The translations under genes and the position numbers were made by a program. The notes below the pieces were generated by a model. It was given only the letters and a program-made list of their open reading frames with translations. It searched no databases and was not told where the DNA came from. Positions 23,557 through 46,878 of a stretch of DNA of 64,000 nucleotides are shown here, piece by piece; the stretch's first letter is position 1, and each line of letters begins with the position of its first letter. Source of the DNA: Polyangiales bacterium. GTDB taxonomy: Bacteria > Myxococcota_A > Polyangia > Polyangiales > Ga0077539. The DNA is taken from positions 1 to 64,000 of the forward strand of contig JBGARZ010000023.1 in assembly GCA_044229975.1 (NCBI GenBank), in the 5' to 3' direction.

Positions 23557-23862
23557 TCAGTGCTGATGACCGCACGGATCGTAGTGGCAGTCCTCGTGAT
23601 GATCGCCGCCACCGTGGTGCGCGCACGCGTCAGCAGTACGCCAGCAGGAGTGATCACCCTCGTCGTGGTACGGGGCATTGGCCGGGCAGCAGTGCTCGCC
23701 GCTCTGGAGGGGCGTCGTCCCGGTGTTGTCCGTCACGACAGCAGCCACAGTTCCCGCCGACCCCGTCGGCACGTCGGTTGAGGCCGTCGCGCGCCCCACC
23801 CCCGCGGCGGTCGAGAACACAATCGCACAGGCTGTCAGCACGAACTTGATCGAAATCTTCAT
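23557..23862 (-). CDS. Secreted His/Cys-rich peptide (TPLQ-leader type)
   Basis: AGGAG RBS; signal peptide; TTPLQ followed by a core with 6 Cys and 10 His. Confidence 0.75.
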   Translation of the reverse strand: MKISIKFVLTACAIVFSTAAGVGRATASTDVPTGSAGTVAAVVTDNTGTTPLQSGEHCCPANAPYHDEGDHSCWRTADACAHHGGGDHHEDCHYDPCGHQH

Positions 23863-24078
23863 GACGGTTCTCCTATGGGAGCCAGACTCGTGACGTTCAC
23901 GAGACGTTCCAGACGTCTGGCTTGGTCAGCCCTCTCCCGCTTTTCCCGATATCCGAGGGTGGGGGACTGTCAAGCCTCATTTTACCGGGAGTAACTTTTT
24001 TCTCGCCCCAATCCGGCACGGTGGCTGCGATGGGCCTACGACGCCGGATCACAGGTGCGGGATGACCCGTCCCCCAGA

Positions 24079-25434
24079 TCACGAACGTCGGGATCGATCG
24101 GTACAGCGTCGCCGCCTGACCACCCCGAGCACCAGAGCCGACCCGATGCTCCAGCCACCGGGCCCATGTCCGCCCAGTCTGCCCCGCGCCCCCACCGCGC
24201 AGCCGCTGTCCTCCATCGGTCCCACCGTGCCGTCGCGCGCTGTTCCTCCGTCCAGCCCCGCGCCTGCGTCGGGCAGGCTCCCGAACCCGCTCCTCACCGT
24301 CGACCAGGTCGGCGCGCACACGTCGCGCACCGCTGTCCCCGCGGGGCAGGCCGTCGGTGGCCCCAGCGTTCGGAAGTCCACCAGCGGGACCACGGTCCGC
24401 CCGTCGTCGTCCGAGCGCGCCAGGTTGAAGCCATCGATCACATGGTTGCCGCACACGTAGAGCGCCCCGGCGTGCCAGCGCAGGCACTGCACCTGCACCC
24501 CGGACACGCGCTCGAAGGGACCGCCCGCCACCGAGCGCAACAGCCCGTCCTCGGGACCGCCCACCCAGACCGTGCGTCCGTCACCCGACAGCGCGAACCC
24601 GCGCATCGCGCCGACCGTCCGCGTGAGCTCGGTGAAGTGCGCGCCCCCGTCCGATGAGCGCAGGAGCAGCGTCGCGCCCAGCTCCCCTGGGCGCCGGGGA
24701 TCGTCCACGAACGAGCGCAGGTACACCACGTCGGGGTCCGTCGGATCGACCGCGGAGAGCCACCCCTCGGCACCGCCCTGCAGATCGAGCGGCGACTCCA
24801 CGAGCGTCGACCCTCCGTCGTCCGAGCGGTAGAGGAGGTCGCGCGCAGGGTTCGCCGCGCGGGCCGTGAGGTACACCCGCCGCGGGTTCGAGGGCGCCGC
24901 CTCCAACGTGAGAAACAGCACCCCAGGGGCGCCGTCGTAGACCGTGCGAAAGCTCCGTCCGCCGTCAATAGAGGCGCGCACCCGGTTGACGAGGCCGGAC
25001 GTCAGGGGGTCGCGATACGAGCCGACCCAATGCACCGTGCGCCCGTCCTCCGTGGCGCTCACGTCGGCCGTGAAGTCGGTGCCGACCTCGGGCACCGCCG
25101 CCGAGGAGCAGACGTCCGCGGTGCGCCGAAGGCCCGTCGGAACCCCCAACATCAGGGGTGGGATACCGTCCTTGCCCGGCGCGCCGAAGGCCACCGGCGG
25201 GTCCCAGACGGCCGAGTTCGCATAGTCGAGGGCGCCCTCGCACATCCACGACCAGCGACGGCCCTCGTCCTCGCCGATCAGCACTCCGAAGGTCGTCCGC
25301 AGCACCATCCGGGCGGGGCGCGCGCCTGCGCTCACCTGCACCATCTGCGCGGTCGGGAAGCGACCGTTGGCCAGGGTTCCCGTCGCCGCAGTGAGCAAGG
25401 CGAGCCCGAGGGCGAGACTCCGGGGCGCGGTCAT
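24079..25434 (-). CDS. BNR/Asp-box beta-propeller (NGRFP family) with MYXO-CTERM-like tail, paralog 3
   Basis: TLA-NGRFP; WMCE; Asp-boxes; SGCAV...LVLGVVRRRR. Confidence 0.85.
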   Translation of the reverse strand: MTAPRSLALGLALLTAATGTLANGRFPTAQMVQVSAGARPARMVLRTTFGVLIGEDEGRRWSWMCEGALDYANSAVWDPPVAFGAPGKDGIPPLMLGVPTGLRRTADVCSSAAVPEVGTDFTADVSATEDGRTVHWVGSYRDPLTSGLVNRVRASIDGGRSFRTVYDGAPGVLFLTLEAAPSNPRRVYLTARAANPARDLLYRSDDGGSTLVESPLDLQGGAEGWLSAVDPTDPDVVYLRSFVDDPRRPGELGATLLLRSSDGGAHFTELTRTVGAMRGFALSGDGRTVWVGGPEDGLLRSVAGGPFERVSGVQVQCLRWHAGALYVCGNHVIDGFNLARSDDDGRTVVPLVDFRTLGPPTACPAGTAVRDVCAPTWSTVRSGFGSLPDAGAGLDGGTARDGTVGPMEDSGCAVGARGRLGGHGPGGWSIGSALVLGVVRRRRCTDRSRRS

Positions 25435-25827
25435 CGTCTCAGTGTAGCCCCAACGGCGGTTTCGCCGGGAAGGCGGCGAAGGCCACGCCTACGGCGGCGC
25501 GGGCTACCCTACGCCCTCCATCGGCGCCGATGGAACCCCTGGTTCTCGCCTCATACCTAGGTCTGACCGTGAGCCGACCTGGGTGCTCGGGCCGCACGCC
25601 GTGGCCGTCCCGTCCACGAGGCGGAATCGAGAGCAGCGGGTCGACGTGGCCACCACCCTTGTTTTCAGGGGAATAGGAACCGGACACCGAATTCCTCACC
25701 CTACCCTGCGCGAGGCCGGCCACGGCGGTGTTAGCGTCGGCCCCGGACGGACCTGGGCACCAAATCAAGGACGTCTGCTGGCGTGTTCCCGCGCCAGCGT
25801 CGCATGCCGCCCGGCACCTGGTGAACG

Positions 25828-27732
<1,905 letters not shown>

Positions 27733-28184
27733 TCGGCCGGTCCCACGAGATGGGCAACCAGCCTTACGCGGCGTGCTGAATGTCGCGTGGCGTCCAGAGC
27801 ATGGGTTCGAGCGCAGTCGGTATGCCGTGGATGCGCAGCAGGCATCCGTGGTCGGGTGAGCGTCGGTTGCGCTCGAAGCACGTCTGCCAGGTCCGTCGTC
27901 GGTGGGCGCGTTCGTCGCGGGAGTGGAAGAGAGCCGCGGGGTGCGGCGTGACCAGCGAAGAGGGCGCAACCTCTACCGCCTGACCGTGCAGGGCCTCGCG
28001 CAACCATCGTCGCGTGTGGCTCGCCGCGAGGTCCACCCACCACACGGCCTTCGGTCCCAACGGCCTCGCACTCGCGCCGGGCGGCATCGTCGTCGGTGAC
28101 GTCTGGGCGGGCACCACGCGCGCCGGGGCCGCGATGAAGCGCGGCGCGAGGGTGGGCCGCGACCCAAGCGGAGACGCGGGCGTA

Positions 28185-28578
28185 TTCGAACTCGACCCGG
28201 AGGACGCCGCCGAGCGGCGCACGCTCGTGCGGGTGCTCGCGATCAATCTGCCGCAGGTCGCGGTGGCCGGCGTCACAGGCGTCCAGCGCCGCGTCCTGGG
28301 CGGTCCTGGGCGCTCCTGGGCGCGGCGCTGGACAACCTCGGCAACGCTCTGTCTACGTCGTCGCCCTCTACGCGGTGGGCAGGTCGGTCGTCGCCAAGGC
28401 ACGAACCGCGCGGCTGTCGGGCATGCTCCTGATCGGGCTGGCCGCGGCGCTGCTGGTCGGGGTCGTCCGGCGCTTCATGACGGGGTCCGATCCGATCGGG
28501 TGGGCGATGATGGTGGCCATCGCCGGGGTCTCGCTCACGGGCGCTGGAAGATCCCGGGGGAGGCGCGCCAGACGCTGA
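28185..28578 (+). pseudogene. CDF-family cation transporter remnant
   Basis: Fragments ERRTLVRVLAINL, LLGAALDNLG, ALYAVGRS...VRRFMTGSDPIG lie in different frames and are truncated. Confidence 0.6.
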
Positions 28579-28867
28579 CCCTGGCAGCCGCGAAGGAGAC
28601 ATCCCGGCCCCGCTCGGAGCGGTGCGCGAACCGCTGATTCAGGGCGGGTGGCAAAGCGCCTGACCGGTCGCGATCCTCGGCGGATTCCGGCCCATCAGCG
28701 ACCACCGCTTCGGGCCCATGATCCTCCGGCGCGGGCTTGAGAGTCTCGTGACCGCGGCGACCGCCATCGCGGCACTGGAGTCGATCGTGACCCTCACGAA
28801 ACCTCCGCTTCTACGCGGCCAGCAACAACACCTGCGCTTCCAGGCGGATCATCGTCTGAAAACCCTC

Positions 28868-29884
28868 TCAGGGCCGAGGGACCGGCCGCACCTGCGGGGG
28901 CATCGTCTCGTGGTCGTGGCCGTGGCCGAACGAGAACGCATAGCCCGCGCTCACGCGGAACTGCTCGTTGTTCGAGACGCCCTGGAAGGACTGCCAGAGG
29001 GGCAGCGAGCCCGCGACGAAGAAGCTGTGCGCGCCGAAGGCGAGGCGCACGCCGGGCGTGATGAAGAGCGACGACACGCCACTGTTGGTCTTCACCGCGT
29101 CCTGCTCGATGTCCCGCTCCTGGAAGAAGGCGTTGAGCTCGACGGACGGCACGAGGAAGCGCCCGAGCGACACCCCGAAGGCGACGTCAGCCTGGAGCGA
29201 GTTCCCGCTGCGGAAGGAGCCCGCGCCCTCGGTGTTGACGCGGGCGAGGACGTCGGCGGACACCAGGAGGCGCCCGAGGAACCGGCCGCTGTACGCTGCC
29301 CCGAACTGGAAGTCCGCCGAGCCGCTCCCGGGCTGGTTGTGCGTGCCCACGAGGTCGCCCTGGTTGGTGCGCTGCCGGATGTCGCCCGTCGGCAGCTTCA
29401 ACCCCAGCAGGGCGGCGAGGTGGTGCTCCCCCACGTGCAGGAGCTGGTAGCGCCCGAAGAGGAGCAGGTCGCCCAGTCCCTGGGAGACGTCCGTCCGCGA
29501 CAGGGCATTGTTCGCCAGCGCGTACCGGTCGCCGTTGTCGAGGAAGTCCTCAAAACGGTTGGCCTGGAGCAGCACGCTCAGGTCCCAGCGCGGGGCGAGG
29601 GGGACGGTCACCCCGAGAAGGGCCGTGTGCTCACGCGCGTGCTGATGGACGTTCTCCCCCTGGCGCTGGAACGCGAGCAACTCCTGCTCCGTGAACAGGC
29701 CGTAGGAGCGAAGGTCGTAGCGAAGCGAGACCGCGACGCCCTCCGCGACCTCCCCGCCGATCGTGTTGACCCCGACGCCCCCGACCCCCCGAACCGACTC
29801 GCCGTGACCGAACGCGGGCCGAGTCCCGCCGGCCAACACCCCAAAGACTGCGACACCGCACGCCCAAACGACCCCTGGCTTCAT
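28868..29884 (-). CDS. Putative outer-membrane beta-barrel 'transporter' (MetA-pathway-like), His-decorated
   Basis: Signal AFG-HGE; GLGDLLL, GLKLPTG, QPGSGSADF; VHQHAREH loop and GHGHDHE tail. Confidence 0.7.
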   Translation of the reverse strand: MKPGVVWACGVAVFGVLAGGTRPAFGHGESVRGVGGVGVNTIGGEVAEGVAVSLRYDLRSYGLFTEQELLAFQRQGENVHQHAREHTALLGVTVPLAPRWDLSVLLQANRFEDFLDNGDRYALANNALSRTDVSQGLGDLLLFGRYQLLHVGEHHLAALLGLKLPTGDIRQRTNQGDLVGTHNQPGSGSADFQFGAAYSGRFLGRLLVSADVLARVNTEGAGSFRSGNSLQADVAFGVSLGRFLVPSVELNAFFQERDIEQDAVKTNSGVSSLFITPGVRLAFGAHSFFVAGSLPLWQSFQGVSNNEQFRVSAGYAFSFGHGHDHETMPPQVRPVPRP

Positions 29885-30410
29885 GAACTCTCCACCTCAA
29901 GATCCGTGCGATGCGGCGAACTCTGGATTGAGCGTCACCCCCGCCGGGTGCCCTGCTCCGCGACCGGAGACCGGAAGGTATTTTCAGGCACCGCGACCGC
30001 CCCACGGGCATCGATGAAAGGCGATGGCATGATTTAATAATTCGTGTCGCGAGCTTTCCTCCGGCGGTGAAGTGCGGTGACAGCGAGTCGAAACGCCCCG
30101 CGGGTCGACCACGTCCTTGGCTGAGCAGGGTGGAGATCGAGATTGTCGCGTGGCAGGTCGCGCGCAGCGCCGCCGGTGCGCGCATTCAGTGGATGTTCAC
30201 GCTCGCTTGAGCGGGCGCGCGAGAGGTTGGGGCGGGTCTACCGTCTACAGCCAGCTCATGACACCGCGTGATGCACCGGTTGATCTGGATGGCGGTAGTG
30301 CAACGCGGCCAGCTCTCACTGATGGGACTGGTCACCGCCCGGTGGCGGCGCGATCCCGTCCTCATCCACCATCACGCGATTGCGGTCGCGCCAATCGTCG
30401 TCGCGGATGC

Positions 30411-31307
30411 TCAGCCAGCGTGCTCCGGCGCCCCGACCCCTACCCGCCCCCACCGACGGGCGTTCTCGTCCCACTCCTCGAAGGTCCCCCGCTCGATGTC
30501 GTAGTACCAGCCGTGCAGATGCACGACTCCATCGGCGAGCCGGTCACGCACCGCCGGGTAGGTGCGCAAGTTCGCCAGCTGGATCCGCACGTTGGCGCGC
30601 GCGGCGTCGTCGTGCGAGCCCAGTGGCCTCAGTTCGGCGAGAGCCTGGCGCGGAGCGTCGAGCCAACGGTTCACGCTCGGTAGTTCAGCCGTCTCTGGCG
30701 CCAGCATGGCCTTGATGGCGCCGCACGCGGAGTGACCACACACCACCACGTCCTCGACGCCCAGTGCGCAGAGGGCGTACTCCACCGCAGCCCCCTCGGC
30801 GGGGGTCGCGTCGTCGCCGAAAGGCGGCACCAGGTTGCCCACGTTGCGCACGATGAAGAGTTCGCCGGGGTCGGTGGTAGTCACAAGATTGGGCACGATG
30901 CGGCTGTCGGCGCAGGTGATGAACAGCGTGTGCGGCGTCTGCGCAACGGCGAGCCGGAAGAAGAGCGCCGCGTAGCGGTCGAGCTGCTGGCGCCGGAAGA
31001 TCTCCAAGCCCCGCACCAGGCGCTCCTTCGGGCACGTGCGGCGCGAGAATTCGAGGAGGCGCATGGCGTCGTCATCGTCCACCGCGAAGCTCGCGGCGAC
31101 CCCGCGTGACGGGTCCGCCTCGGTCAGTCGGCGCGCCACGGCCCCGGAGAGCCCTACGAGGGCGGTGCGCCGATCCGCGGCGGTGCGCGCGCCCACCAGC
31201 GCCGCGAGCGCAGACGCCTCCGCGACGTCGAGGTCGTGCATGGAGGTCAGGTCGAGCACGACGCTATCGGCGAGCGTGTGGGAGGCCGTGCCCCCGCAGC
31301 GTCGCAA
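30411..31307 (-). CDS. Beta-carbonic anhydrase with degenerate STAS N-terminus (likely a truncated SulP-STAS-CA fusion)
   Basis: FITCADSR, GELFIVRNVGN, VCGHSACGA; upstream VVLDLTSMHDLD and an out-of-frame FHLSAPLT (STAS-like). Start uncertain. Confidence 0.8.
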   Translation of the reverse strand: MRRCGGTASHTLADSVVLDLTSMHDLDVAEASALAALVGARTAADRRTALVGLSGAVARRLTEADPSRGVAASFAVDDDDAMRLLEFSRRTCPKERLVRGLEIFRRQQLDRYAALFFRLAVAQTPHTLFITCADSRIVPNLVTTTDPGELFIVRNVGNLVPPFGDDATPAEGAAVEYALCALGVEDVVVCGHSACGAIKAMLAPETAELPSVNRWLDAPRQALAELRPLGSHDDAARANVRIQLANLRTYPAVRDRLADGVVHLHGWYYDIERGTFEEWDENARRWGRVGVGAPEHAG

Positions 31308-31523
31308 GGTCGTCGGACGTCAGGGGAGCGCTCAGGTGGAATCGGCTGACCGCGTGCAGCATCTGGGTCAAGGGCATCGGGAGACCTCCAGGCGACGGCG
31401 ATTCGTGAGAGGTTGCGGAGCATAGACGAGCGAGCGCGTGAACTGGTGCGCGCTGGCTTCGTGGTCGGCGCGCCGCGACGTGCGTCGCCTCTCACTCCGT
31501 CGGCATCGAGGAGACTGCGACCT

Positions 31524-32429
31524 GTGCTGCCCTACAAACCTCGCGACTGGCTGCGGCTGCTGCTCCGGATCCGAGGCTCGTTCGCGCGGGGCGTCCCGCT
31601 GCGCATCCTCGCGTTCGGGGCCATCGCGGCGGTCGTCACGGAGATCGACCGGCGGGGAGTGACCCTCCACCTGCCGGCGGGTGTTCACGAGGCGGGGGGG
31701 GCCGTCATCGCGCTGGTCCTCGCCTTTCGCGTCAACACTGGATACAACCGCTTCTGGGAGGGGCGCACGCTCTGGGGCGCCATCGTCAACGCGAGCCGCA
31801 ACCTCAACCGCATCGTGTACCGCCACGCCGCGCAGAGCCCGGATGACGCGCGGACGTTTGCTGTATGGGTTGTGACCTTCGCGCACGCCGCCCGGCGCCG
31901 GCTCCGGGGTGAGGCGCAATGTCCTGAGATCGAATACCTCCTGGGCCCCGAGCAGTACGCCTCCCTGACCGGGCTGGGGTCGCCACCGCTGGTGGCGGCT
32001 TCGGAACTCTCGCGGCGAATCCAGGCACTCCTCGCGCGCGGCGCCATCGACGCGAAGTTCGCGGTCCAGGCGGAGGCCGAAGTGAACGTGCTGGTCAACA
32101 GCCTGGGCGGCTGCGAGCGCATCCTGAAGACACCGACGCCGCTCGGGCTGGTGCTACTCATCGAGCGCCTTATCGCGCTCTACCTCTCGACGCTGCCCTT
32201 CAACCTCCTCGGCCGGGTCGAGGTCTTCACGCCCCTCATCACGATGCTGATCGCCTATCCGATCCTCATGATCGACGCTCTCGGGGCCGAGTTTGACGAG
32301 CCCTTCGGGCACGACGCCAACGACTTGCCACTGACCCGCATCTGCACCACGATTGAGCGCGACCTCCTGGGCAGCGAGCCACCAGCGGAGATGGTCTTCG
32401 CGGGGGCGGCAACCACCGCCGAGGATTGA
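31524..32429 (+). CDS. Bestrophin-family anion channel (YneE/UPF0187-like)
   Basis: GAGGAG RBS; LAFRVNTGYNRFWEGRTLWG, GGCERILKTP, DEPFGHDANDLP. Confidence 0.9.
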   Translation: MLPYKPRDWLRLLLRIRGSFARGVPLRILAFGAIAAVVTEIDRRGVTLHLPAGVHEAGGAVIALVLAFRVNTGYNRFWEGRTLWGAIVNASRNLNRIVYRHAAQSPDDARTFAVWVVTFAHAARRRLRGEAQCPEIEYLLGPEQYASLTGLGSPPLVAASELSRRIQALLARGAIDAKFAVQAEAEVNVLVNSLGGCERILKTPTPLGLVLLIERLIALYLSTLPFNLLGRVEVFTPLITMLIAYPILMIDALGAEFDEPFGHDANDLPLTRICTTIERDLLGSEPPAEMVFAGAATTAED

Positions 32430-32530
32430 GTTGGGGTGTCCATCGTACGCGCTGAACCGTTGGGGATGGGGCGACCCCGTGCCTACGCTGAGAGCACCCT
32501 GCGTCAGGCCGCCGATCGGCTCGACGAGCG

Positions 32531-32758
32531 TCAGTGCTGGACGTAGACCGTCTGGCCGTGTGTCGGCTGCCCGTAGACCGTCTGGCCGTGTGTCGGCTGC
32601 CCGTAGACCGTCTGGCCGTGTGTCGGCTGGACATACCCGTGCTGGTGGGTGGGTTGGCCGTAGGCAGGTGCGTGATGATCATGCATCAGACACCCACCCA
32701 ACAGCGCACTCATCATGACGACGACGGAGGAGGACAATGCGAGTTTCATGTAGACCAT
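32531..32758 (-). CDS. Small His-rich lipoprotein with (YGQPTHGQTV) repeats
   Basis: LLGGC lipobox; HDHH immediately after; decapeptide repeats. Confidence 0.65.
   Translation of the reverse strand: MVYMKLALSSSVVVMMSALLGGCLMHDHHAPAYGQPTHQHGYVQPTHGQTVYGQPTHGQTVYGQPTHGQTVYVQH
32542..32629. repeat. 30-bp tandem repeat x3 (coding)
   Basis: CGTAGACCGTCTGGCCGTGTGTCGGCTGCC repeated; the third unit diverges at its last two bases. Confidence 0.95.
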
Positions 32759-32934
32759 GTTGATGCTCTCTTGCTTGTGAGATGTAATCCCGTAGGTTCA
32801 TGTGGATAGGGTTTGTTGCAAGCCTTGACCTATACACAGGGTTCTGTCCGAGCACAATGCCCTGCGTTCGACGTGCCCCGACGCCCCCATGACGAAACCA
32901 CACCACTTTCGTCTTCAGGTCAGGACCTTTGGAG

Positions 32935-33204
32935 TCAGTGACCGTGGCCACGTCGGCCATTGCCAGTCCACACCGGCGTCCCGTGCGGGGTGTAGCCACC
33001 GTGGCCCTGGTAGGGCGTGGGGATGATTCGCGGGGCGTAGACCGGCGCCTGCTGAACTGGGGCGTAGACGGGCACGGTCCATTGCCCGTGGCCGCCGTGG
33101 TGCCCCGGACCGCCGTACTGGTTGCCCCCATGGTGTTGTGCCATCGCGGTACCACCAGCGAGGAGAAGTCCGAGCGACAGGCTGAGAGTGGAGATGAAGT
33201 TCAT
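32935..33204 (-). CDS. Small secreted His/Gly/Tyr-rich peptide
   Basis: GGAGG RBS; signal AMA-QHHGG; GHHGGHG, PVYAP x2, GHGH tail. Confidence 0.7.
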   Translation of the reverse strand: MNFISTLSLSLGLLLAGGTAMAQHHGGNQYGGPGHHGGHGQWTVPVYAPVQQAPVYAPRIIPTPYQGHGGYTPHGTPVWTGNGRRGHGH

Positions 33205-33647
33205 GATGTCCTCCGTGAGGTTTGGTTGTCGACGTCACGCATCCCCGACATCCGAGGTCAGGAAGGGCTTCGTTGGGGGTGTCGAGAGTCTACCGCTCCG
33301 CCGAAATCTGGGCGTCCTGGCGAACGGCATTTGCAGTCCTCGTGCCGCTCGTCGTCGCGGCGTCGGGCCCATGAGCAACGGTTGACGAACCACCTGCCAC
33401 GCTGGTGAAAATCGCACCTCTGGCGAGCGCTAACGGGATGCTGTTGGATTCTAGGAACGGGGGGACACCGCACCGTGTGAACCCGCGGCTTCAGCGTTGT
33501 GAGCCGCAGGTAACAGTCACGACTGTCCGCGCGCCCGGCGACCGATCAGCGCCTGGTCGTTGGTCTCCACCACGTCGACGCGCACGCGATTGTCGAGAGC
33601 GTCGATCACCGCACACGTCGTGCTTGCGGCATGCACATCCAATCCGT

Positions 33648-33668
33648 CCTCGCGCATAACTTCGACAC
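33648..33668 (+). repeat. 21-bp direct repeat, copy 2
   Basis: CCTCGCGCATAACTTCGACAC, matching 18729-18749. Confidence 0.7.
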
Positions 33669-33677
33669 ACCGGCGGG

Positions 33678-34170
33678 TCACGCGGCGACGAGGATCATGC
33701 TGAGCTTCCAGGTCTCGTCGAGGGCCACGGAGATCAGCCGCTCGATGCCCGCGCGCGGCATCGTCCGAGGCGCTCGCCGGTGGTGTCGCCCCAGAGGCCG
33801 ATCAGTCCACCATCGCGGTGAGGGTGCGGCGCAGGGTGCTGTCCGAGCAGGCGATCCAGGGCGACAGACCAGCCAGGACGAAGAAGGTGCGGAGCGTCGT
33901 GGCTCCAGCTCCGCCCATCACGCCGAAGACGAAGAGCGCGGCGAGGACGATGCAGACCGCGTGTGCCCTCCGGGCTGTCGAGGAAGGACGAGAGCGACGG
34001 GCGGTCGGGGTCGCGTCGATGTCGCGCGAACCAGCCGCCCAGGTGCGACGCGCCAAGCTGCGCCGTCGGGCGGCGGCGCGCAGGGTGGATGCGCCCGCGT
34101 GGGCCATGTCGGCGGCGCGCTCGAAGCGGGGGAAGTGCGCGAGGCACGAGGCCCTTGGGTCGCCGAAGAA
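33678..34170 (-). mobile_element. Degraded transposase remnant (DUF6399/ISNCY-like)
   Basis: Frameshifted pieces FLDSPEG, VLAALFVFGVMGGAG...FFVLAGLSPWIACS and ISVALDETW..MILVA resemble the N-terminal half of that family (from recall). Confidence 0.5.
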
Positions 34171-34444
34171 ACTTGGGCAGGGGTGAGGAGCACGGTCCGT
34201 CCTCGGGTGCGAGGGGTGGCGTAGAGAACCGCTCTCATGCCCCCGGTCGGGCCGTGCGTTCAACCCCTGGGGAGCTCCTGCCCGGGGCTATGCTCGTTCA
34301 GCATGGCGCAGATAGACGGGTAGCCCGGTCTTGCTTCGCCCGGTCGCTCAGGTATCTGTCCCCAGACGCGCGGTCGCCCGCGCCGCGTGAGGACGCCGTC
34401 GTCGGAGAGCCCGACGGACACCCCACCGGAAAGACCGCCCAGAC

Positions 34445-35908
34445 ATGACAGGCCACTTTGCAGCGCGGGTCGGAATGCTTCTCGCGGGCATGTTGCTGAC
34501 CCCCGCGCCAGTGAGCGCGAACGGTCGCTTCCCGACGGCGGGCTACTTCGTCGCAGGCCCCGGGGTCCGCAATGACGTGTTCGCGCTGCGTACCACCTTC
34601 GGCGTGCTCGCCTCGCGCGACGCCGGGCAGACGTGGACGTGGGTCTGCGAGGCCGCCTACAACCAGATCGGCGCGAGCGACCCCACGCTCTCCATCGGCG
34701 CCGACGGAACCCTGGTTCTCGCCTCGTACCTCGGGCTGATTGCGAGCGACGGCGACTACTGCTCCTGGCCCAGGCTGGCCGGAGTGCCGCAGCGGGATTT
34801 CGCCGACGTGACCAACACCGCCGACGGGCGCTCGCTGGTCGCGCTCGCGGGGCCCGATGGTGAGAACGCGCTCTACCTCTCCAGCGACGCCGGCCACACC
34901 TGGGAGTTGGGGGCTCGCCTCACCGGATACGCGACCGAGACCGTGGACGTCGCGCCCGGCGATCGCCTGCGCGTGTACGTCACCGGCTACGGCAGCGGCG
35001 GGCGACCGGTGCTGCTGCGGAGTGACGACGGTGGTCGTACCGTGCGCGAGGTCACGAGGGATTTCCTGGGAAACCAGAACATCTATATCGCCGGGGTCGA
35101 TGCGACGCGCCCCGACATGATCTACCTCCGCGCCATGAACGGCCTCGCGACCACGCTGCTGCGCAGCGAGGACGGCGGGGCGACGATGCGGGCCGTCGGA
35201 CGGACCGCGCGGGACATGCTGGGCTTCGCGCTCTCCGACGACGGGGAGACCGTCTGGATCGCGAGCGCCGACCGCGCGGAAGGCATCCTGCGGTCGGAGC
35301 GCGGAGGGCCCTGGGTTCGCATGGCGGCGGACGTGGGCGTGAAGTGTCTGCGCTTCCACGCGGGCACGCTGTTCGTGTGTGCGGACGAGGCGCGCGACGG
35401 CTTCGCGCTGGGCTATTCCCACGACGGTGGCGACCACGTCGACCCGCTGCTCTCGTTCCGCTTGGTGGACGGGACGACCACGACGTGCGGCTCGAGCACC
35501 CAGGTCGGCGCCACCTGTCCCGCCCTCTGGTCCTCGGAGACGATCCTGCTGCGGAGCGTTGACGCGAGCGTGCCGAACGCTCCGGTCTTCCACGACGCCA
35601 GCACCGATCATGGGGTCATCACCGACCGCCTTCCGCCGCTCGACACCTACGTCCCGCCGTCGGACGGGGCGACGGTGCGCGACGCGGGTCGTGGACTCGA
35701 CGCGGCGGTCGTGAGCGGGACTGACGCTGCGATGGACGCTCAGCGTCCTCTCGACGCGGCGGTAGGATCGACCGGCCCCGCAGGTGGTTGCGGCTGCTAC
35801 GTCGCCAGTCGCGATGCATCGAGCGATCGGGGTGGGGCGTGCGTCGCGCTGGCCGTGTGGGTCACGTTCGCGGGAACATCAAGGCGCGCGCGGCGTCGGC
35901 GGCGATGA
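34445..35908 (+). CDS. BNR/Asp-box beta-propeller (NGRFP family) with MYXO-CTERM-like tail, paralog 4
   Basis: VSA-NGRFP; Asp-boxes; GGCGC...RRARRRR. Confidence 0.88.
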   Translation: MTGHFAARVGMLLAGMLLTPAPVSANGRFPTAGYFVAGPGVRNDVFALRTTFGVLASRDAGQTWTWVCEAAYNQIGASDPTLSIGADGTLVLASYLGLIASDGDYCSWPRLAGVPQRDFADVTNTADGRSLVALAGPDGENALYLSSDAGHTWELGARLTGYATETVDVAPGDRLRVYVTGYGSGGRPVLLRSDDGGRTVREVTRDFLGNQNIYIAGVDATRPDMIYLRAMNGLATTLLRSEDGGATMRAVGRTARDMLGFALSDDGETVWIASADRAEGILRSERGGPWVRMAADVGVKCLRFHAGTLFVCADEARDGFALGYSHDGGDHVDPLLSFRLVDGTTTTCGSSTQVGATCPALWSSETILLRSVDASVPNAPVFHDASTDHGVITDRLPPLDTYVPPSDGATVRDAGRGLDAAVVSGTDAAMDAQRPLDAAVGSTGPAGGCGCYVASRDASSDRGGACVALAVWVTFAGTSRRARRRRR

Positions 35909-37377
35909 GTCCCTCGCCAGAACGTCCCCTGGGTGGCCGGAGGCGACAGGCGGTGCGGTTGGGGATGCTGTTGGTGGCGACGGCCCTGAGCTCTGCGGAG
36001 GCGCGGGCGAACGGGCGCTTCCCCGGGGCCAACTACTTCGTGGCGGGGCCGGGTTCGCGCAACGACGTGTTCGCGCTGCGTACGACCTTCGGACTGCTGC
36101 TCTCGCGCGACGGTGGTCGGGCGTGGAGCTGGGTCTGCGAGGGGGCCTACGGGGCCATCGCGGGCGACCCCGCGCTCTCGATCGGAGCGGACGGCACCCT
36201 CGTGCTCGCGTCGTACGTCGGCCTGAGCGGCAGCAGCGGCGGTGACTACTGCACCTGGGCGCCTCTGGGAGGAGTTCCTGTGCGGGACTTCATCGACGTC
36301 TCGCAGACCGCGGACGGCCGGTCGATGGTCGCCCTCGCGGGGCCCGGCGGGGAGAACGCGCTCTACCTCTCGTCCGACGGCGGGCGCACCTGGAACCCCG
36401 GCGCGCGCCTCGTCGGGTACACCACGGAGACCGTGGACGTCGCGCCCAGCGACCCGACGCGGGTCTACGTCACCGGGTACGCGACCACGGGCTCGGGCGG
36501 ACCGGTGCTGCTGCGAAGCGACGACGGCGGTCGCACCGTTCGAGAGGCCACGCGCGACTTCCTCGGCGGCGAGAGCGTCTTCCTGGCCGGGGTGGATCTG
36601 ACGCGCCCCGACGTGATCTACCTGCGCGCCGTGCGCGGCCTCCCGACGACCCTGTTGCGCAGCGACGACGGAGGAATGACCGTACGGCTCGTCGCGCAAA
36701 CCGCGCGGGAGATGCTGGGCTTCGCGCTCTCTGACGATGGTGACACGGTGTGGATCGCGAGCGCCGATCCCGCCGGGGGGATACTGCGATCGGAGCGTGG
36801 CGGCCCATGGACGCGCACCGCAGCGGACCTTGGCGTGAAGTGTCTGCGCTTCCACGCGGGCACCCTGTTCGTGTGCGCGGACGAGGCGCGCGACGGCTTC
36901 GCGCTGGGCTATTCCCGCGACGGCGGCGACCACGTCGATCCGTTGCTCTCGCTGCGTCTGGCGGAGGGCGCGTCCGGGGCTTGCGGTCCAGGCACCCAGG
37001 TGGGCGGCGCCTGCGCTTCCCGCTGGGCGACAGAGACGATGCTGCTCCGAGACATCGACGCGAGCGTGCCAACCGCGGCGGTGTTCCACGACGGGAGCAC
37101 CGATCACGGAGTCGCACTCGATCGGGCTTCGCCAATCGACGGGCCGACCGGTCGCCTCGACGCGGGTCAACCAACCGACATGATGGTCCTTCCCCCTGGT
37201 GGCTGCGGGTGTCGCGTAGCGGGGCGGGGCGGAGGGCCAGCACGGGGCGTGACGGTGAGCGCGTGGCTCACCGCGGCGGTGGTGCTCGTCGGGCGTTTGA
37301 GGCGACGAGCGCCGGCGAGGAGTGCCCATCTCCCGGCAGCCCGACTTGCTCCCGCGCAAACGGCGAGGCTCGGTTGA
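35905..37377 (+). CDS. BNR/Asp-box beta-propeller (NGRFP family) with MYXO-CTERM-like tail, paralog 5
   Basis: ATGA overlap with paralog 4 and high similarity to it; GGCGCRV...GRLRRR. Confidence 0.88.
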   Translation: MSPSPERPLGGRRRQAVRLGMLLVATALSSAEARANGRFPGANYFVAGPGSRNDVFALRTTFGLLLSRDGGRAWSWVCEGAYGAIAGDPALSIGADGTLVLASYVGLSGSSGGDYCTWAPLGGVPVRDFIDVSQTADGRSMVALAGPGGENALYLSSDGGRTWNPGARLVGYTTETVDVAPSDPTRVYVTGYATTGSGGPVLLRSDDGGRTVREATRDFLGGESVFLAGVDLTRPDVIYLRAVRGLPTTLLRSDDGGMTVRLVAQTAREMLGFALSDDGDTVWIASADPAGGILRSERGGPWTRTAADLGVKCLRFHAGTLFVCADEARDGFALGYSRDGGDHVDPLLSLRLAEGASGACGPGTQVGGACASRWATETMLLRDIDASVPTAAVFHDGSTDHGVALDRASPIDGPTGRLDAGQPTDMMVLPPGGCGCRVAGRGGGPARGVTVSAWLTAAVVLVGRLRRRAPARSAHLPAARLAPAQTARLG

Positions 37378-37443
37378 CGGAAATGCGAGTGCTTTGATAG
37401 GGCAGTCTCGGAGTGTGCTGGCGCACCTCATTGGGAGGACATC

Positions 37444-37749
37444 ATGGATATCCGAACTGTCGCTTTTGCCGTCGCTTCGTTGGCTTTGGGTTTGGCTGCC
37501 GGAGACATCAGGGCTGAAACACCGATCACCATGCAGGAGGACGTGCTCCAGACACCTCCCGCGACCCCCTTGCAGCACTGCTGGCAAGAGTGCCATCCCG
37601 AGTGCCATCCGGTTTGCGTCCCCGAGTGCCATCCGGTCTGCCACCCCATCTGTGATGCCGATGGGCACTGCCACCAGGACTGTCACCAGGAGTGCCACCA
37701 GGACTGTCACCAGGAGTGCCACCAGGAGTGCCACCAGGTTTGCCGCTGA
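37444..37749 (+). CDS. Secreted (CHxx)n Cys/His-repeat peptide (TPLQ-leader type)
   Basis: GGAGG RBS; signal peptide; ATPLQ followed by 14 Cys at 4-residue spacing in two arms and 12 His; 12-bp DNA periodicity. Confidence 0.85.
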   Translation: MDIRTVAFAVASLALGLAAGDIRAETPITMQEDVLQTPPATPLQHCWQECHPECHPVCVPECHPVCHPICDADGHCHQDCHQECHQDCHQECHQECHQVCR

Positions 37750-37932
37750 CGAAGAGGCGGACCTCCTCGTCGGAAGCCCGCATGTAGAGAGCGAGTGCGC
37801 GCGTTGGCGAGGTTTCTTCCGGGGGGTGTCGCCATCGAAATCCGTCGAGGTGCGACGGAGGCAACGTATCGGGGATCGTCCAAGCTGCGAAGGCCCGATC
37901 GCCGCGAGGCGTGCCGCACCTGCAACCGTTGG

Positions 37933-39258
37933 GTGTACCTTCCCGGCGTGCTTCGACGAGCTCTCCTCGCAACCGCGCTGAGCTTCCTTCCAGCCACGGC
38001 CTACGGCAACGGACGCTTCCCCCAGGCGCAGGAGTTTCACCAAGCCCCGGGCTCGAACAGCGAGCTCATGGTCGTGCGCGCCACCTTCGGACTCATCGTC
38101 AGCGTCGACCGGGGCCAGCGGTGGGAATACTGGTGCGAGGACGCTCTGCAGTACTCCGACGGCTACGATCCGCCGCTGACGTACACCGCCAACGGCACGC
38201 TGCTCGTCGCCCTCGACAACGGCCTCTTGAGCACCCGCGATGGGTGTTCAGTTCGCCGCCAACCCGACCTCGAGTCCCTCAGCGTCAAGGACATCGCCTC
38301 GTCGCCCGACGGCCGCGTGACATGGGCGATCGCGGTGACCCGCAGCATACGACCCGACTCGCGCGTCGCACGTTCGACCGACCAGGGCCTCACCTTCGAG
38401 TTCGTCGGCGACCGCTTCGAGGGGGTGATGCTGGAAACCATCGAGGTCGCGGGCTCCGATCCGCTGCGGCTCTACGCCACCGGCACGCTGACCTCCGACG
38501 GCACCGCGGTGCTCTTCCGCACCGTGGACGGCGGCGTGCGCTGGGTGCGCGCCAGCGCGGGCTTCGGCGAGGCTAGCGGGGTGTACGTCTCCGGCGTCGA
38601 TGGGCATCGCCCGGAGGTCGTCTACCTGCGCGCGACCGCGGCCGGGCGGGACATGGACGCCGGCCCCGCGGGCAGCGCTGATGTGCTCTTCCGCAGCGAC
38701 GATGGGGGTGAGACGCTGCGCGAGGTGCTTCGTACCCGCGGCCCGATGCGGGGGTTCGGACTCTCCGACGACGGTCGACGGGTGTGGGCTGGCGGGCCCG
38801 AAGACGGCGTGTGGCGCTCCATCGACGGGGCAGCGCCCACGCGCTTTTCGGACGAGCCTGTCGACTGCCTCCGGTGGAGTTCGGGTGCCCTGTGGGCCTG
38901 CCGCGTCTTCACCCTCGGCGGCCCCTTGTTGCTGCGGAGCGACGGCGACAGCGCCTTCGTCACAGCGCTTTCGGCGCCTGAGGTTGGCGGTCCTCCGGTC
39001 CGTTGCCCGACCGGAACCGTCGCGAGCGGGGTGTGTCCGTCGCGGTGGAGCGTGGTGCGGCGATCTCTCGTTCAGCCGGCGGCGATCGATGCCTCGACCG
39101 ACCAGGGCGCGGCGGTCACGCAGCCGTCCTCGGCGGGCCATGGATGCCACGCCGGACCTGGGGCGCAGGGGGCTTGGAGCGCCTTCGTCGGGTTCGCCGT
39201 TGCGGCGATCGGACGGCGGCGGCGCACTCGCACCCTCCGCTCCCGCCCTGACGGCTGA
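37933..39258 (+). CDS. BNR/Asp-box beta-propeller (NGRFP family) with MYXO-CTERM-like tail, paralog 6
   Basis: AYG-NGRFP; YWCE; Asp-boxes; GHGCH...AAIGRRRR. Start approximate. Confidence 0.85.
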   Translation: MYLPGVLRRALLATALSFLPATAYGNGRFPQAQEFHQAPGSNSELMVVRATFGLIVSVDRGQRWEYWCEDALQYSDGYDPPLTYTANGTLLVALDNGLLSTRDGCSVRRQPDLESLSVKDIASSPDGRVTWAIAVTRSIRPDSRVARSTDQGLTFEFVGDRFEGVMLETIEVAGSDPLRLYATGTLTSDGTAVLFRTVDGGVRWVRASAGFGEASGVYVSGVDGHRPEVVYLRATAAGRDMDAGPAGSADVLFRSDDGGETLREVLRTRGPMRGFGLSDDGRRVWAGGPEDGVWRSIDGAAPTRFSDEPVDCLRWSSGALWACRVFTLGGPLLLRSDGDSAFVTALSAPEVGGPPVRCPTGTVASGVCPSRWSVVRRSLVQPAAIDASTDQGAAVTQPSSAGHGCHAGPGAQGAWSAFVGFAVAAIGRRRRTRTLRSRPDG

Positions 39259-39665: not shown

Positions 39666-41181
39666 CTACCGCCCACTCAGTCGGGCGACAGCTTCTTCGA
39701 GCGCGCGTCCCATCTCCGCCTCGGGGTCCGCTTCGGCCCGGATCACGCTCCGCGTCCCGACCCCAAGAGTTTGGGTCACCTGGACCTGAGTCCAGCCCTT
39801 GGACCTGCGCCATGCGCGCAGCTCGCTGCCCGTCGGGATCGAGGGCACTGGGGCGGCTCGACGGGCGGGAGGTGGTGGATCAGGCGGTCGCGGACCCACT
39901 GGGGGGGTAGAGGTGACAGCGGCCCCCGAGCGTCCGTTCGCCGCCCGCTTGACACCATCGCACCTCGCCCAGACCTTCGACGCGTTGGAGTTCGGCCAAG
40001 TCGCGCTCGAGGGACGTCCAGGCGCGACCCGGCTTGTTGGAGTCGAACTTGATGCCCGCGGTCTCGAGGAGTCCCTGGCCGGTGAGCGTGACGCACTCCC
40101 GGCCCTTCGCGAGGTCCCAGCGCCAGTGGATCGGGAGGATCAGTCCCAGGGCGAGGGCGCAGGGGTGGCGCACATGGTCGATGCGCGCGAGGTCGGCCGG
40201 GGCGGGTGCCCAGAGTGATCCCAGGGTGCCGTCGCGGTCCCGGACACCCTCGTAGAGCGCGGGGTGGATGGCCAGCACGAGCCCCTCCAGCGCCCACTCG
40301 GAGTCGTAGATCGCCTCGGCCCGCTGCGTGATGCTGAGCACGGGGCCGCGCATCCGCAGCTCCCCGCTGCGGTGGTAGATGGCCAGTTCGAGCCGCGTCA
40401 GCGCTTCGACCTCGTCGGCGACGACCTTACGCACGGAGTCGTCGCGGCGCGCGCGGTCGGAGTACCCGAGCGCGTCCATGTGCGCCTCGATTTTCCACCG
40501 CACGAACCCCGTTCGCCCCTCCGTGGTGAGCAGCCGGTGCCAGGCCGCCCAGTGCCGGAGCCCCTGCCACCCGCACCACGCCCTCACGGCGTGGATGATC
40601 CGCTCGGGGAGTTCTCGGACGTCCAGCTGCAAGCGCACCTGCCGGGTGGGGGCGAGGATCTCGGCCCACCCGTCCATGACCGGCGTCTTGTGCGGTTGCC
40701 TGTCTTTCGGGCGGTCGCGCCAGCCGTTGAGCAGCGCGTGGTGCGCGGGACCCGCGTCGAGTGCCATGAACGGCCGCTCGCGGTCGCGCTGGGCCGCGCG
40801 GACCGCGTGAGCCGAGAGCGCCGACAACGCCAGGACCCTCGCCAGCTCCCAGACCCTGGACAGGAAGTCCTGCTCGCCCGCGACCCCTTGCTCGGCGGCC
40901 ATGACCAGCGAGGCTGCACCCCACGTCCAGTCGAAGGCCGCCCCGCCGCGGATTCCGGGAAGGGTCGCCGGTCTGTCCGGTGTACCGGTTCCCCGATCGA
41001 CTGGGCGGTTCGCGCCGTTGGCTTGGAGCGCGAGGACGGTGCTGAACACCTCGCCGCGCGCTTCCAGATCGCTGCGAAGGTCGGCGAGGCCTTCCGGGCC
41101 GCTCGCCGTGGCCAGGAGCCGGTCGATCACCAGGCCGAGGTCCTTGTCCGACACCAGGGCTCGAAGCGCGTTCCGCAGCAC
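39666..41181 (-). pseudogene. Rep-like protein with C-terminal XRE HTH, frameshifted paralog of 44751..46397
   Basis: Shares WQGLRHWAA, EVEALTR and LALGLILPIxWRW. The C-terminus (LYPP/QWVRDRL/TGSELRAWR) is split over three frames near a G7 run at 39901. Confidence 0.7.
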
Positions 41182-41229: not shown

Positions 41230-41735
41230 AGGTGCTGAGGGAGCTGCTGGCGATGAGGGTCCAGAAGACGCTCATGCTGAGCGGAGACCACCAGGGGTCG
41301 CCGACGCGGTGGCCCGGCAGGTCGGCCTGACCGACGCGAAGGGCGACCTGCTCCCCGAGGACAAGGGCCGCGTCATCGACGAGCTCGCGAAGGCCGGCGT
41401 CGGCGTCGCCATGGTAGGCGACGGGTTCAACGACGCCCCAGCGCTCGCCTGATCGACCGTCGGGATCGCCATGCGGGCAAGCGGTTCGGACGTGGCGCTG
41501 AAGACAGCAGACATCGTGCCCATGGGTGACGACCTGCGGGCTTTGCCCTTCGCCGTGGGCCTCAGCCGCGCCTGCCGGCGGGTCATCCAACAGAACCTCT
41601 GGGCGAGTCTCGGCATGGTCGCGTTCCTCATCCCAGCAACTGTGTTCGGGATCGCCGGCATCGGCGTCGCGGTCGTGCTGCACGAAGGTTCGACACTCCT
41701 TGTCGTGACCAACGCCCTGCGCCTGCTGGCATTCA
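41230..41735 (+). pseudogene. C-terminal fragment of a P1B-4 heavy-metal ATPase
   Basis: [24 protein letters not shown], then an in-frame TGA, then VVLHEGSTLLVVTNALRLL. Confidence 0.85.
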
Positions 41736-41844
41736 TTGCCCCCATTTCACAGCGAAACCATAGTTGCTTCTCCGCCTTTCCTTCTGGACGTCATTCCTTC
41801 ATGCCGTCACGAAGGCAAGATGGTCGCGTCGTACCGTGCGTCCA

Positions 41845-41923
41845 CGCCGCGTGCTTCCACTGCGACCCTCTGCTGGAGGGGTGTGACCCCGATCCGGCGT
41901 GACATCAGTCGTCGAGCTGTTGA
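41845..41923 (+). repeat. ~80-bp direct repeat, copy 1
   Basis: CGCCGCGTGCTTCCACTGCGACCCTCTGCTGG...GTCGTCGAGCTGTTGA, near-identical to 43827-43910. Confidence 0.9.
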
Positions 41924-44683: not shown

Positions 44684-44837
44684 CCGCAGGATCTGCCGGA
44701 TTCCTGCCGGTTCACCCGCAGGATCTGCCGGATTCCTGCCGGTTCATCCGCTAGGTCTGCCGGATTCCTGCCGGTCCACCCCTCCTGGCCAGTTCATCCG
44801 CAGGGTCTGCCGGATTTCTGCCGGTCACCTGCCGGTC
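44684..44837 (+). repeat. Iteron-like tandem array, 32-bp period
   Basis: CAGGATCTGCCGGATTCCTGCCGGTTCAYCCG-type units at 44687, 44719, 44751 and a fourth at 44801; overlaps the 3' end of the rep-like gene. Confidence 0.85.
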
Positions 44838-46397
44838 GAGACCCGCCCGGATGGCTCGCCCGAGCGGCTCGTCAGGCGCCGCCTCGGCTCCCCGAATGGT
44901 CCTCTCCCCCACGCCCAGCATCTTCGCCGCTTGCGCCTGCGTCCAACCTTGCTGCAAACGCCAGGCGTGTAGTTCGCCACCTGTTAGCAACAAGGGCGTC
45001 GCGAGCTGCTCGGCCGGCTCGATTCCATGAACCAATCGGTCACGGACCCACTGCGGCGGGTAGAGGTGGCAACGCCCGGTACGGGACCGCGCCTCGTTCG
45101 GGTTCCACCGGGCGAGCCCGAGTCCCCCCACGCGCTGCAGCTCCGCGAGGTTGCGGTCGAGCGCCGTCCAGGCCCTCCCGGGGTCGTGCGAAGACACGGG
45201 GATCCCAGCCGTGTCGAGGAGGCGCTCTCCCGTGAGGGTCAGATGATCCAACCCGTCGGCGGTGTCCCATCTCCACCGGATCGGCAGGATCAGTCCGAGG
45301 GCGAGCGCGTACGGGAAGCGGGCGTGGTCGATCGTCGCCAGCTCGGTAGGAGCCGGGGCCCAGAGCCTCCCGATGGAGCCGTCGGCGCGGCGGACCCCCT
45401 CGTACAACGCCGGGTGGATGACGAGCTCGAGCCCCTGGAGCGCCCACTCGGACCCGCGCAGGGCCTCGCCGCGCTGGGTCACGGCGAGAACTGGGCCGCG
45501 CAGGCGGAGGGTGCCGTCTGAGTTGTAGACGGCGACCTCCATGCGCGTGAGGGCTTCGACCTCGGCGGCGACGGTCGCCCGCAGCTCGGGCGTTCGCCGC
45601 GAGCGGTCGGCGTAGCCGAGGGCGTCGAGGTGGTCTTCGAGCGACCAGCGGATGCGCCCCGTACGTCCGGCCTCGGTGAACAGGCACTGCAGCGCGGCCC
45701 AATGCCGGAGCCCCTGCCACGACCGCCACGCTTTGATGGCATGAACGATCCGCTCGGGCAGCTCCTGGACGTCGAGCCGTAGCCCGAGCTGTTTGCTGGG
45801 GTGGAGGATCTCGGCCCACCCTTCGCGCTGGGTCGTCGTGTAGGGACGCCGACGATTCTTCGGCAGGTCGCGCCACCGGTCGATCAGCGAGTGGTGAACG
45901 TTGCCGGCGTCCAGCGCTATGAAAGGCCGCGCTCGGTCGCGTTCGATCTCGCGCCACGCGAGGTAGGCGCGGGCCGCGAGTGCGACAGAGATGGGCGGTT
46001 CATCGTCCGCGTCGTCGCGGCCGCCCGAGGCGAAGAGGCCGCGGATGCGGTCGCAGCAGGCAGCCGCTGCGGCGGGGTCCGGCGCCCGGTCGCCGAGCCA
46101 GGCGACGACATCGGCGGGGGCGGCGGCCAGCGGCCAGAGCGGCAGGGCAGAGCCGCCCTCCACGCTGACCTCGATGGCCATCCAGACGGTCGGGTCGGCG
46201 CCGAGTTCGGCGCCCGCCGCCGTCAGCGCGGCGAGGTGCGGCTCGGTGTCGGAGAGGCCGGAGGCGCGCACCCGATCGACCACCGCCGCGCGCACGGCAT
46301 CAGCGACCAGCGTTCGGAGCGCGCCGTCGAGCGCGTCGAGGTCGGCTCGCACGAGCAGAGCACGGGCGTCGGAGCGGCGCACGACGAGAGGGGTCAT
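44751..46397 (-). CDS. Putative replication initiator (Rep-like) with C-terminal XRE-type HTH
   Basis: Downstream of parA and its partner, abutting iterons; GELHAWRLQQGWTQAQAAKMLGVGERTI HTH. Function inferred from context. Confidence 0.6.
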   Translation of the reverse strand: MTPLVVRRSDARALLVRADLDALDGALRTLVADAVRAAVVDRVRASGLSDTEPHLAALTAAGAELGADPTVWMAIEVSVEGGSALPLWPLAAAPADVVAWLGDRAPDPAAAAACCDRIRGLFASGGRDDADDEPPISVALAARAYLAWREIERDRARPFIALDAGNVHHSLIDRWRDLPKNRRRPYTTTQREGWAEILHPSKQLGLRLDVQELPERIVHAIKAWRSWQGLRHWAALQCLFTEAGRTGRIRWSLEDHLDALGYADRSRRTPELRATVAAEVEALTRMEVAVYNSDGTLRLRGPVLAVTQRGEALRGSEWALQGLELVIHPALYEGVRRADGSIGRLWAPAPTELATIDHARFPYALALGLILPIRWRWDTADGLDHLTLTGERLLDTAGIPVSSHDPGRAWTALDRNLAELQRVGGLGLARWNPNEARSRTGRCHLYPPQWVRDRLVHGIEPAEQLATPLLLTGGELHAWRLQQGWTQAQAAKMLGVGERTIRGAEAAPDEPLGRAIRAGLDRQVTGRNPADPADELARRGGPAGIRQT

Positions 46398-46447
46398 GGC
46401 GTTTCGAGAAGAGAGCCGTGCAGAGACATCGGAATGCGCTGTCTCAG

Positions 46448-46843: not shown

Positions 46844-46878
46844 GCGTTCCTCACTTCCATTATGACGGCAGTCCGCCC

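Follow-up and report, generated by a model that had tools for sequence, protein, structure and literature searches.

Two rare, unrelated families of small His/Cys-rich proteins, probably exported, in a heavy-metal resistance island of a Polyangiales bacterium

The first 64 kb of contig JBGARZ010000023.1 (C29, 152 kb) from a Polyangiales bacterium (genome of 10.0 Mb, 71% G+C), a stretch to which we refer as the window, contain two short open reading frames (ORFs), here called peptide 1 and peptide 2. Each encodes a signal-like N-terminus, a spacer, the motif TPLQ and a core rich in His and Cys. A first-pass annotation of the window had proposed that each peptide is partnered by the NGRFP-family propeller protein encoded directly upstream. 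Our analysis points elsewhere: both ORFs seem to be genuine genes and to belong to two families that are rare, unnamed and mutually unrelated; they would be accessory genes of a heavy-metal resistance island. On balance, we lean towards the reading that their products are exported, disulfide-stapled, His-rich metal binders that act as buffers in the envelope.

Both ORFs encode 101 aa, as had been annotated, and both are preceded by a ribosome-binding site (AGGAG 6 nt before the ATG of peptide 1, GGAGG 5 nt before that of peptide 2). The gene caller missed both, and both score poorly under the host codon model. We found two relatives of peptide 1 among seven candidates, P0002 (78% identical) and P0003 (53%), and one true relative of peptide 2, in genome G074 from another family of the same order (G074:C22, recovered as L002, L015 and L030; L015:420-662, minus strand). 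Between peptide 2 and the G074 gene, 13 changes in 47 core codons are synonymous, and 24 of 42 differences lie at third codon positions. Since the divergence in the peptide 2 family is of the coding type, and the core is kept in the relatives of peptide 1, both appear to be real genes despite their poor codon scores.

The core of peptide 1 is identical at 44 of 47 positions in P0002 and at 41 of 47 (87%) in P0003, with six invariant Cys and ten His, but two leader parts match between peptide 1 and P0003 at only 7/27 and 6/27 positions. Similarly, peptide 2 and its G074 relative agree at 35/56 core positions but at 5/24 and 6/21 positions in the leader parts. Read from these alignments, the pattern within each family is a conserved core and a drifting leader, which is the reverse of the conserved-leader, variable-core logic that had been proposed, a logic like that of ribosomally synthesised peptides that are modified after translation (RiPPs). 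Between the families, the cores are unrelated, as annotated: a BLASTP alignment with 28% identity is driven by composition, and the local alignment score of the two DNA sequences is 28, where shuffled sequences give a mean of 23.6 and a maximum of 37. The signal peptides, predicted from the pattern of a basic N-terminus, a hydrophobic stretch and an AxA-like site, lack a twin-arginine motif in both peptides and their three relatives. Peptide 1 has 7 Cys and 10 His and ends in PCGHQH; peptide 2 has 14 Cys and 12 His and ends in CHQVCR. The spacer, given earlier as about 20–25 aa, is indeed about 22 aa in peptide 1 but slightly shorter (16–21 aa) in peptide 2.

The five sequences (three and two per family) are all that our searches produced. 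No Pfam family matches either peptide, there is no match to DUF326, DUF2282 or EGKCG, and NCBIfam gave only scores far below cut-off. For peptide 2, a 5.8-billion set contained no homologue when searched with the single sequence (6 candidates) or with a two-row alignment (73 candidates). The single match among 1.84 billion representatives, P0004, was rejected as a different, long-leader Cxxx protein; it is a 229-aa protein with a C-terminal (CHxA)n repeat and probably a target of Cxxx-repeat modification. A GTDB scan reduced 239 pattern matches to seven loci, of which one is true (L030, the G074 gene) and six were read on inspection as off-frame repeats. Across 201 genomes (E 0.001) there were matches in nine other genomes, one of them true and five loci weak (L003–L005 and L009 were inspected and rejected), and 401 genomes of the phylum gave six weak matches in frames of 114–982 aa. 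In the family of G074, the only other locus, in G159, was rejected. For peptide 1, the 201 genomes gave one weak match, an alignment search found it in 0/400 other genomes (with only 12 candidates per genome scored), and both loci from a JGI metagenome scan were spurious. The ESM Atlas returned no usable match for peptide 2 and only unnamed clusters below 0.9 for peptide 1. Pieces near-identical to peptide 1 occur in three sequencing runs, on short contigs of which none spans to the propeller, and they are uninformative on adjacency; no RNA data set was listed among the sequencing runs that contain the sequence. A literature search found no account of these peptides or of the NGRFP family, although they might appear in supplementary tables of precursors, such as that of PMC12452194.

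The setting is consistent with a role in metal handling. C29 is a long metal-resistance region with several CzcCBA-type pumps, P-type ATPases, ArsR, BlaI/M56 and ZIP-like genes, and it additionally carries ParA and recombinase-like genes. The G074 peptide likewise has a metal island as its setting: a CruR-like leader and czcCBA follow 167 nt downstream of it. Both small proteins are probably exported by the Sec pathway. Sec export delivers proteins into an oxidising compartment, so disulfides are likely to form there, leaving His and Asp/Glu as ligands. The core Cys counts are even (6, 14 and 12), which, with the left-right symmetry described below, also suggests disulfides. Once disulfides had stapled the cores, the side chains of His and Asp/Glu would bind divalent metal ions (Zn, Cu, Ni or Co), and the peptides would buffer metals in the envelope.

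The core of peptide 2 has a Cys at every fourth residue in residues 46–70 and 76–100, a spacing that peptide 1 does not have. Its two arms are mirror-equal in Cys about a central C-D-x-x-G-H-C turn, with 7+7 Cys here and 6+6 in the G074 relative. The arms thus stay equal while the number of repeats changes, a symmetry that a disulfide ladder across the arms would require, and this suggests that peptide 2 could be a disulfide-laddered hairpin. Such a mirrored (CHxx)n core is easily produced and tested and would offer a simple scaffold with several metal sites. AlphaFold models peptide 2 as a two-helix hairpin (helices at 42–69 and 78–100) at low confidence, with a mean predicted local distance difference test score (pLDDT) of 55.9, so the idea of a beta-hairpin was not borne out. 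A fold search with this model retrieved only generic helical hairpins (best Z 5.9, root-mean-square deviation 6.1, 59 residues aligned; none with Z >= 8). For peptide 1, the pLDDT of 48.8 means that there is no confident model.

Table 1. Features of the window discussed in the text
Feature	Position	Strand	Remarks
Peptide 1 gene	23557..23862	minus	encodes 101 aa: predicted signal peptide (residues 1-27), then spacer, TPLQ and a core of 47 aa (6 Cys, 10 His)
TPLQ codons of peptide 1	23704..23715	minus	residues 50-53; kept in P0002, CVAQ in P0003
Promoter-like site TTGACA-N16-TAT	23949..23973	minus	between the propeller and the start of peptide 1 (gap of 216 nt)
NGRFP BNR/Asp-box propeller	24079..25434	minus	MYXO-CTERM-like tail; upstream neighbour of peptide 1
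NGRFP propeller	34445..35908	plus	begins a tandem run of three; identity to the second propeller 75%
NGRFP propeller	35965..37377	plus	next gene upstream of peptide 2; uncertain start codon; motif NGRFP at 36010
Peptide 2 gene	37444..37749	plus	encodes 101 aa: predicted signal peptide, then spacer, TPLQ and a (CHxx)n core whose 7+7 Cys lie about a CDADGHC turn
TPLQ codons of peptide 2	37564..37575	plus	residues 41-44; VPLQ in the G074 relative
NGRFP propeller	37795..39258	plus	follows peptide 2 directly; uncertain start codon; motif NGRFP at 38008

Several observations weigh against the metal-buffer reading. It leaves the recurrence of PLQ in both families unexplained, the structure models of both peptides are of low confidence, and the sample is small. 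Neither peptide was found in 60 czcA-centred regions of relatives (1.10 Mb), which means that islands of this kind do not carry them as a rule. Moreover, peptide 2 starts 66 nt behind one propeller gene and lies just before another, the third of the tandem run, which the first-pass annotation did not mention, and scans for promoters and terminators gave no match around it; co-transcription of peptide 2 with the propellers is therefore likely here. The rarity of the peptides (5 sequences), together with the failed link to the propellers, also limits their importance.

The recurrence of PLQ could be accounted for if both peptides were modular precursors, in which an envelope protease other than the propeller cuts at PLQ and frees variable His/Cys cores from a signal peptide and a disposable spacer. 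Among all small ORFs of the genome with a signal peptide and a Shine-Dalgarno sequence (1201), only these two combine TPLQ with a His/Cys tail. TPLQ is present in three of the five sequences, PLQ in four and Q in all five, and the first core Cys always follows 1–5 residues later. The conservation of TPLQ, suggested earlier as a processing or recognition site, is mixed: P0002 keeps the full motif and the G074 relative keeps PLQ (as AVPLQ, after a spacer of about 4 residues) although its spacer is otherwise identical at only 6/21 positions, but the tetrapeptide itself is altered there to VPLQ and in P0003 to CVAQ. PLQ is encoded by different codons in the two peptides and is rare in the proteome (9.4e-5 per residue), occurring within residues 20–60 in 12 of 1593 signal-bearing genes. 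On the other side, P0003 retains the core yet has CVAQ, no third PLQ family was found in 1.13 Mb around propellers or in the czcA regions, and no protease gene lies beside either peptide. In shuffles that preserve composition, a shared 4-mer arises by chance in 14.6% of cases anywhere, in 3.1% within 10 positions and in 1.3% within the spacers; this statistic is post hoc and suggestive only. We therefore regard such maturation as unlikely; PLQ may mark a place of trimming or simply the point at which the spacer stops. A broader idea, which is still improbable, is that the two families exemplify a class of exported miniproteins, hitherto undescribed, that bind metal and are modular in build (signal peptide, spacer, PLQ and variable His/Cys core), with a common envelope protease that matures them at PLQ and with peptide 2 as a length-tunable, disulfide-laddered (CHxx)n hairpin. 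If this were true, peptide 2 would display a row of His/Glu sites and be a new kind of extracytoplasmic metallothionein analogue.

The peptides could also be disulfide-rich secreted miniproteins without a role in metal binding (signals, inhibitors, antimicrobials or matrix components) that hitch-hike on a mobile island. The region of 18–28 kb around peptide 1 does carry non-metal cargo (an OmpA/LCCL protein, a Cys-rich lipoprotein and a Ser/Thr kinase), and most czcA regions lack the peptides. However, each core has 10–12 His, which are kept in the relatives, and the peptide 2 family occurs independently next to czcCBA, so we consider this rather unlikely.

The proposal that the propellers are partners of the peptides rests on their arrangement, which is as annotated: each peptide lies directly behind a propeller gene on the same strand, with gaps of 216 and 66 nt. 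To learn if this adjacency is conserved, we took NGRFP propellers in other published genomes (135 distinct ORFs of 204 matches) and, after dropping 12 with less than 880 nt downstream, scored 123. None of the 123 is followed by either peptide or by any ORF with PLQ and a His/Cys tail, and two precede a different His/Cys lipoprotein. In this genome, the same filter recovers both peptides, behind 2 of the 13 propellers, leaving 11 without such a neighbour, and it passes 12 of 1500 random genes. A scan of 132 propeller loci (1.13 Mb, both strands) and of the czcA regions found no further member of either family; it gave one weak hidden Markov model match (L259). Neighbours were compared for the peptides of the window and, of the three relatives, for the one in G074, where the propeller closest to the peptide is 23.8 kb away.

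The two propellers upstream of the peptides are 42% identical to each other. A tree of 30 rows, comprising the 13 propellers of this genome and 17 chosen relatives, puts them in separate, starred clades, and their union is rejected (p-AU 4e-52). The clade of the propeller next to peptide 1 includes a paralogue (G000:C2) and relatives from the genus with 79–82% identity, and the closest relatives of the two propellers (77–82%) precede BlaI, an ion-channel-like gene or a deiminase. Eight of the 13 full-length NGRFP genes lie on C29, seven of them in the window, and because propellers are so dense in the island, the position of the peptides is likely a by-product of the many copies. Given this density (of about 47 genes in the window, 7 encode propellers, as do 5 of about 15 genes in 23–44 kb), the chance that both peptides sit behind a propeller is about 2–11%.

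It had been suggested more specifically that the peptide is the cargo or substrate of a surface-anchored propeller that reads TPLQ. The filter's low rate among random genes, the location of peptide 2 within the three-propeller run and the presence of a propeller in the G074 island agree with this, as does a likeness of the propellers to sortilin at the level of BNR repeats. Sortilin is a peptide receptor. However, the propeller family occurs in 31 of the 31 genomes of the host's family, and neither peptide was found in the other 30. As no other genome examined repeats the placement, an outcome that the first-pass annotation had itself named as a refutation, a system in which propeller and peptide are dedicated to each other is unlikely, and we rate the cargo model as very doubtful. 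A co-fold of a propeller (350 aa, 77-row alignment) with peptide 2 (residues 25–101) scored 0.00 and is evidence neither way. In the gap upstream of peptide 1, the promoter-like site is unique in the window, with 0.03 expected in shuffles, but its pattern was picked post hoc and a stricter promoter scan did not pass it; RNA structure upstream of peptide 1 is not supported (z -0.13).

Hardly credible to us is that the peptides are precursors of RiPPs on which an enzyme acts in trans, either an MNIO (as for bufferins) or a radical SAM enzyme (as for Cxxx-repeat targets). A Sec signal with a Cys core is the bufferin layout (PMC12452194), the genome has four MNIO-like genes, and peptide 2 weakly resembles TIGR04117 (12.7 bits) and P0004. 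However, the cut-off of TIGR04117 is 50, about 65 kb separate peptide 2 from the nearest MNIO gene, which comes with a Cys-bearing precursor of its own, the called genes of C29 show no radical SAM motif (CxxxCx[FYH]C), and no MNIO or radical SAM gene was recognised by inspection among the called genes around the G074 relative.

The NGRFP proteins have a signal peptide, BNR repeats and a tail of Cys-Gly-Cys, a hydrophobic stretch and Arg-rich sequence. MYXO-CTERM surface proteins with BNR/Asp-box propellers are known (PMC11980579), and the NGRFP proteins resemble them in the signal peptide, the BNR repeats and the MYXO-CTERM-like tail; the NGRFP family differs from them in that it reaches the cut-off of no curated model and that no ligand is known for it. 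The MYXO-CTERM model TIGR03901 scored 15.7–18.2 bits (cut-off 20) for 3 of 5 propellers scanned and gave no score for those at 24079 and 34445, although the tag pattern is visible by eye. The propeller directly upstream of peptide 2 has BNR, Sortilin-Vps10 and MYXO-CTERM matches, all below cut-offs. The likeness to sortilin (E about 1e-7) is weaker than that to GH74 xyloglucanases (1e-18). Near-invariant residues include four Cys and no His. The family also occurs in 30 of 32 genomes of G074's family (a tally that, like the one below, includes one unpublished genome, on which no conclusion depends). Copy numbers range from 2 to 13 per genome, and subclades have fixed neighbourhoods (G000 C29 and C11, L016–L021, L105–L107, L111–L118), with genus-level copies clustering in metal islands. 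In about 13 loci of one subclade, the propeller has a Fur/Zur-like regulator and a permease beside it. Copies from Sandaracinaceae can start with HGR instead of NGR.

Other small Cys- or His-rich products were noticed along the way. A different small lipoprotein family has a C-x3-[ED]RCH ... CHE ... C..C...C domain, sometimes repeated, without a Pfam match (G000:C11:467183-467671, L165/L174; L022:10894-11223; L093; L107:2441-2740; alignment A4). It is found in 17 of 31 genomes of the host's family and 17 of 32 of G074's family, near metal genes and with a propeller within 1.5 kb in only 3 of 51 loci, and it is a better candidate than the two peptides for a widespread unnamed metal-binding lipoprotein. 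The G074 island contains two further small His/Cys ORFs without a Pfam match (L014:19534-19854, G074:C22, and L015:6464-6751): one encodes a twin-arginine peptide in which C-S-D-S-D-P-H-D-P units recur, the other a lipoprotein that has the unit W-C-x-E-H twice. In the window, an 89-aa ORF (32935-33204, minus strand) has a signal-like N-terminus and Gly/His/Tyr/Pro-rich repeats, without Cys or a family match, and traces of mobile elements (39880-41154, 41309-41900 and 44751-50201) comprise what remains of a broken P-type ATPase, a ParA and its small partner, helix-turn-helix proteins and a long unannotated ORF. Elsewhere on C29, a 60-aa secreted peptide with three C-C-x-P-G-S-P-type units (82688-82870; also L017:14825-15007), common to several genomes of the genus, precedes genes for an extracytoplasmic function (ECF) sigma factor and an anti-sigma factor. 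A bufferin-like cluster (C29:102034-104081) encodes a lipoprotein-type Cys-bearing precursor, an MNIO (DUF692-like) and a partner; the other three MNIO-like genes are elsewhere in the genome. Finally, small ORFs resembling CruR/DUF2946 (window 62649-62954, minus strand; L223, L229, L240, L242, L243, L245, L246 and L248) end in HPPRA or RPP[AS]A and precede czcCBA operons, and those of them that were scanned have no Pfam match; they are likely leader peptides, as yet unannotated, that sense metal for efflux and not for uptake.

The metal-buffer reading places the two peptides near several known systems, from each of which they differ in at least one defining feature. Bacterial metallothioneins of the SmtA/BmtA type are small, Cys/His-rich, cytoplasmic thiolate-cluster proteins; the peptides are likewise small, Cys/His-rich and likely to bind several metal ions, but they have no Pfam match and both have a signal-like N-terminus. 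The Cxxx-repeat targets of radical SAM enzymes (TIGR04117 and kin) share with peptide 2 the Cys at every fourth residue, but peptide 2 has a signal peptide instead of a leader, a central turn and mirrored halves, and no neighbouring radical SAM maturase was found among the called genes of C29. The copper-sensing upstream ORFs of the CruR/DUF2946 type, whose RAPP-like arrest motif lies about 45 residues past a CXXC (PMC9426467), are also small, predicted to be exported, Cys/His-bearing and located in metal operons. The peptides do not fit this type: they have no CXXC-to-RAPP layout, end in a His/Cys core and do not match DUF2946 (E 0.01). Bufferins and oxazolins, described in PMC12452194 and PMC11626156 as MNIO-modified, Sec-exported copper-binding peptides, resemble the peptides in the Sec signal peptide and Cys-containing core, as read from sequence, and in the metal-stress setting. 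Unlike bufferins, however, the peptides have no adjacent MNIO/DUF2063 genes, the nearest MNIO-like gene being at C29:102517, and match neither DUF2282 nor EGKCG. The copper storage proteins Csp1 and Csp2 (DUF326; e.g. NGO1701) have, according to bioRxiv 10.1101/2025.05.01.651437, a Tat signal and a four-helix bundle lined with metal-binding Cys. The peptides are similar in that they would be exported, Cys-rich, helical and, in peptide 2, CX3C-spaced, with proposed metal buffering in the envelope, but they differ in their Sec-like signals without RR, cores of about 50 aa, many His, likely disulfides and the lack of a DUF326 match. By analogy, the peptides may nevertheless work like Csp1-type storage proteins or bufferins. 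Such small exported metal buffers have been recognised only recently, and unmodified, disulfide-stapled, His-rich ones would extend the set to myxobacteria.

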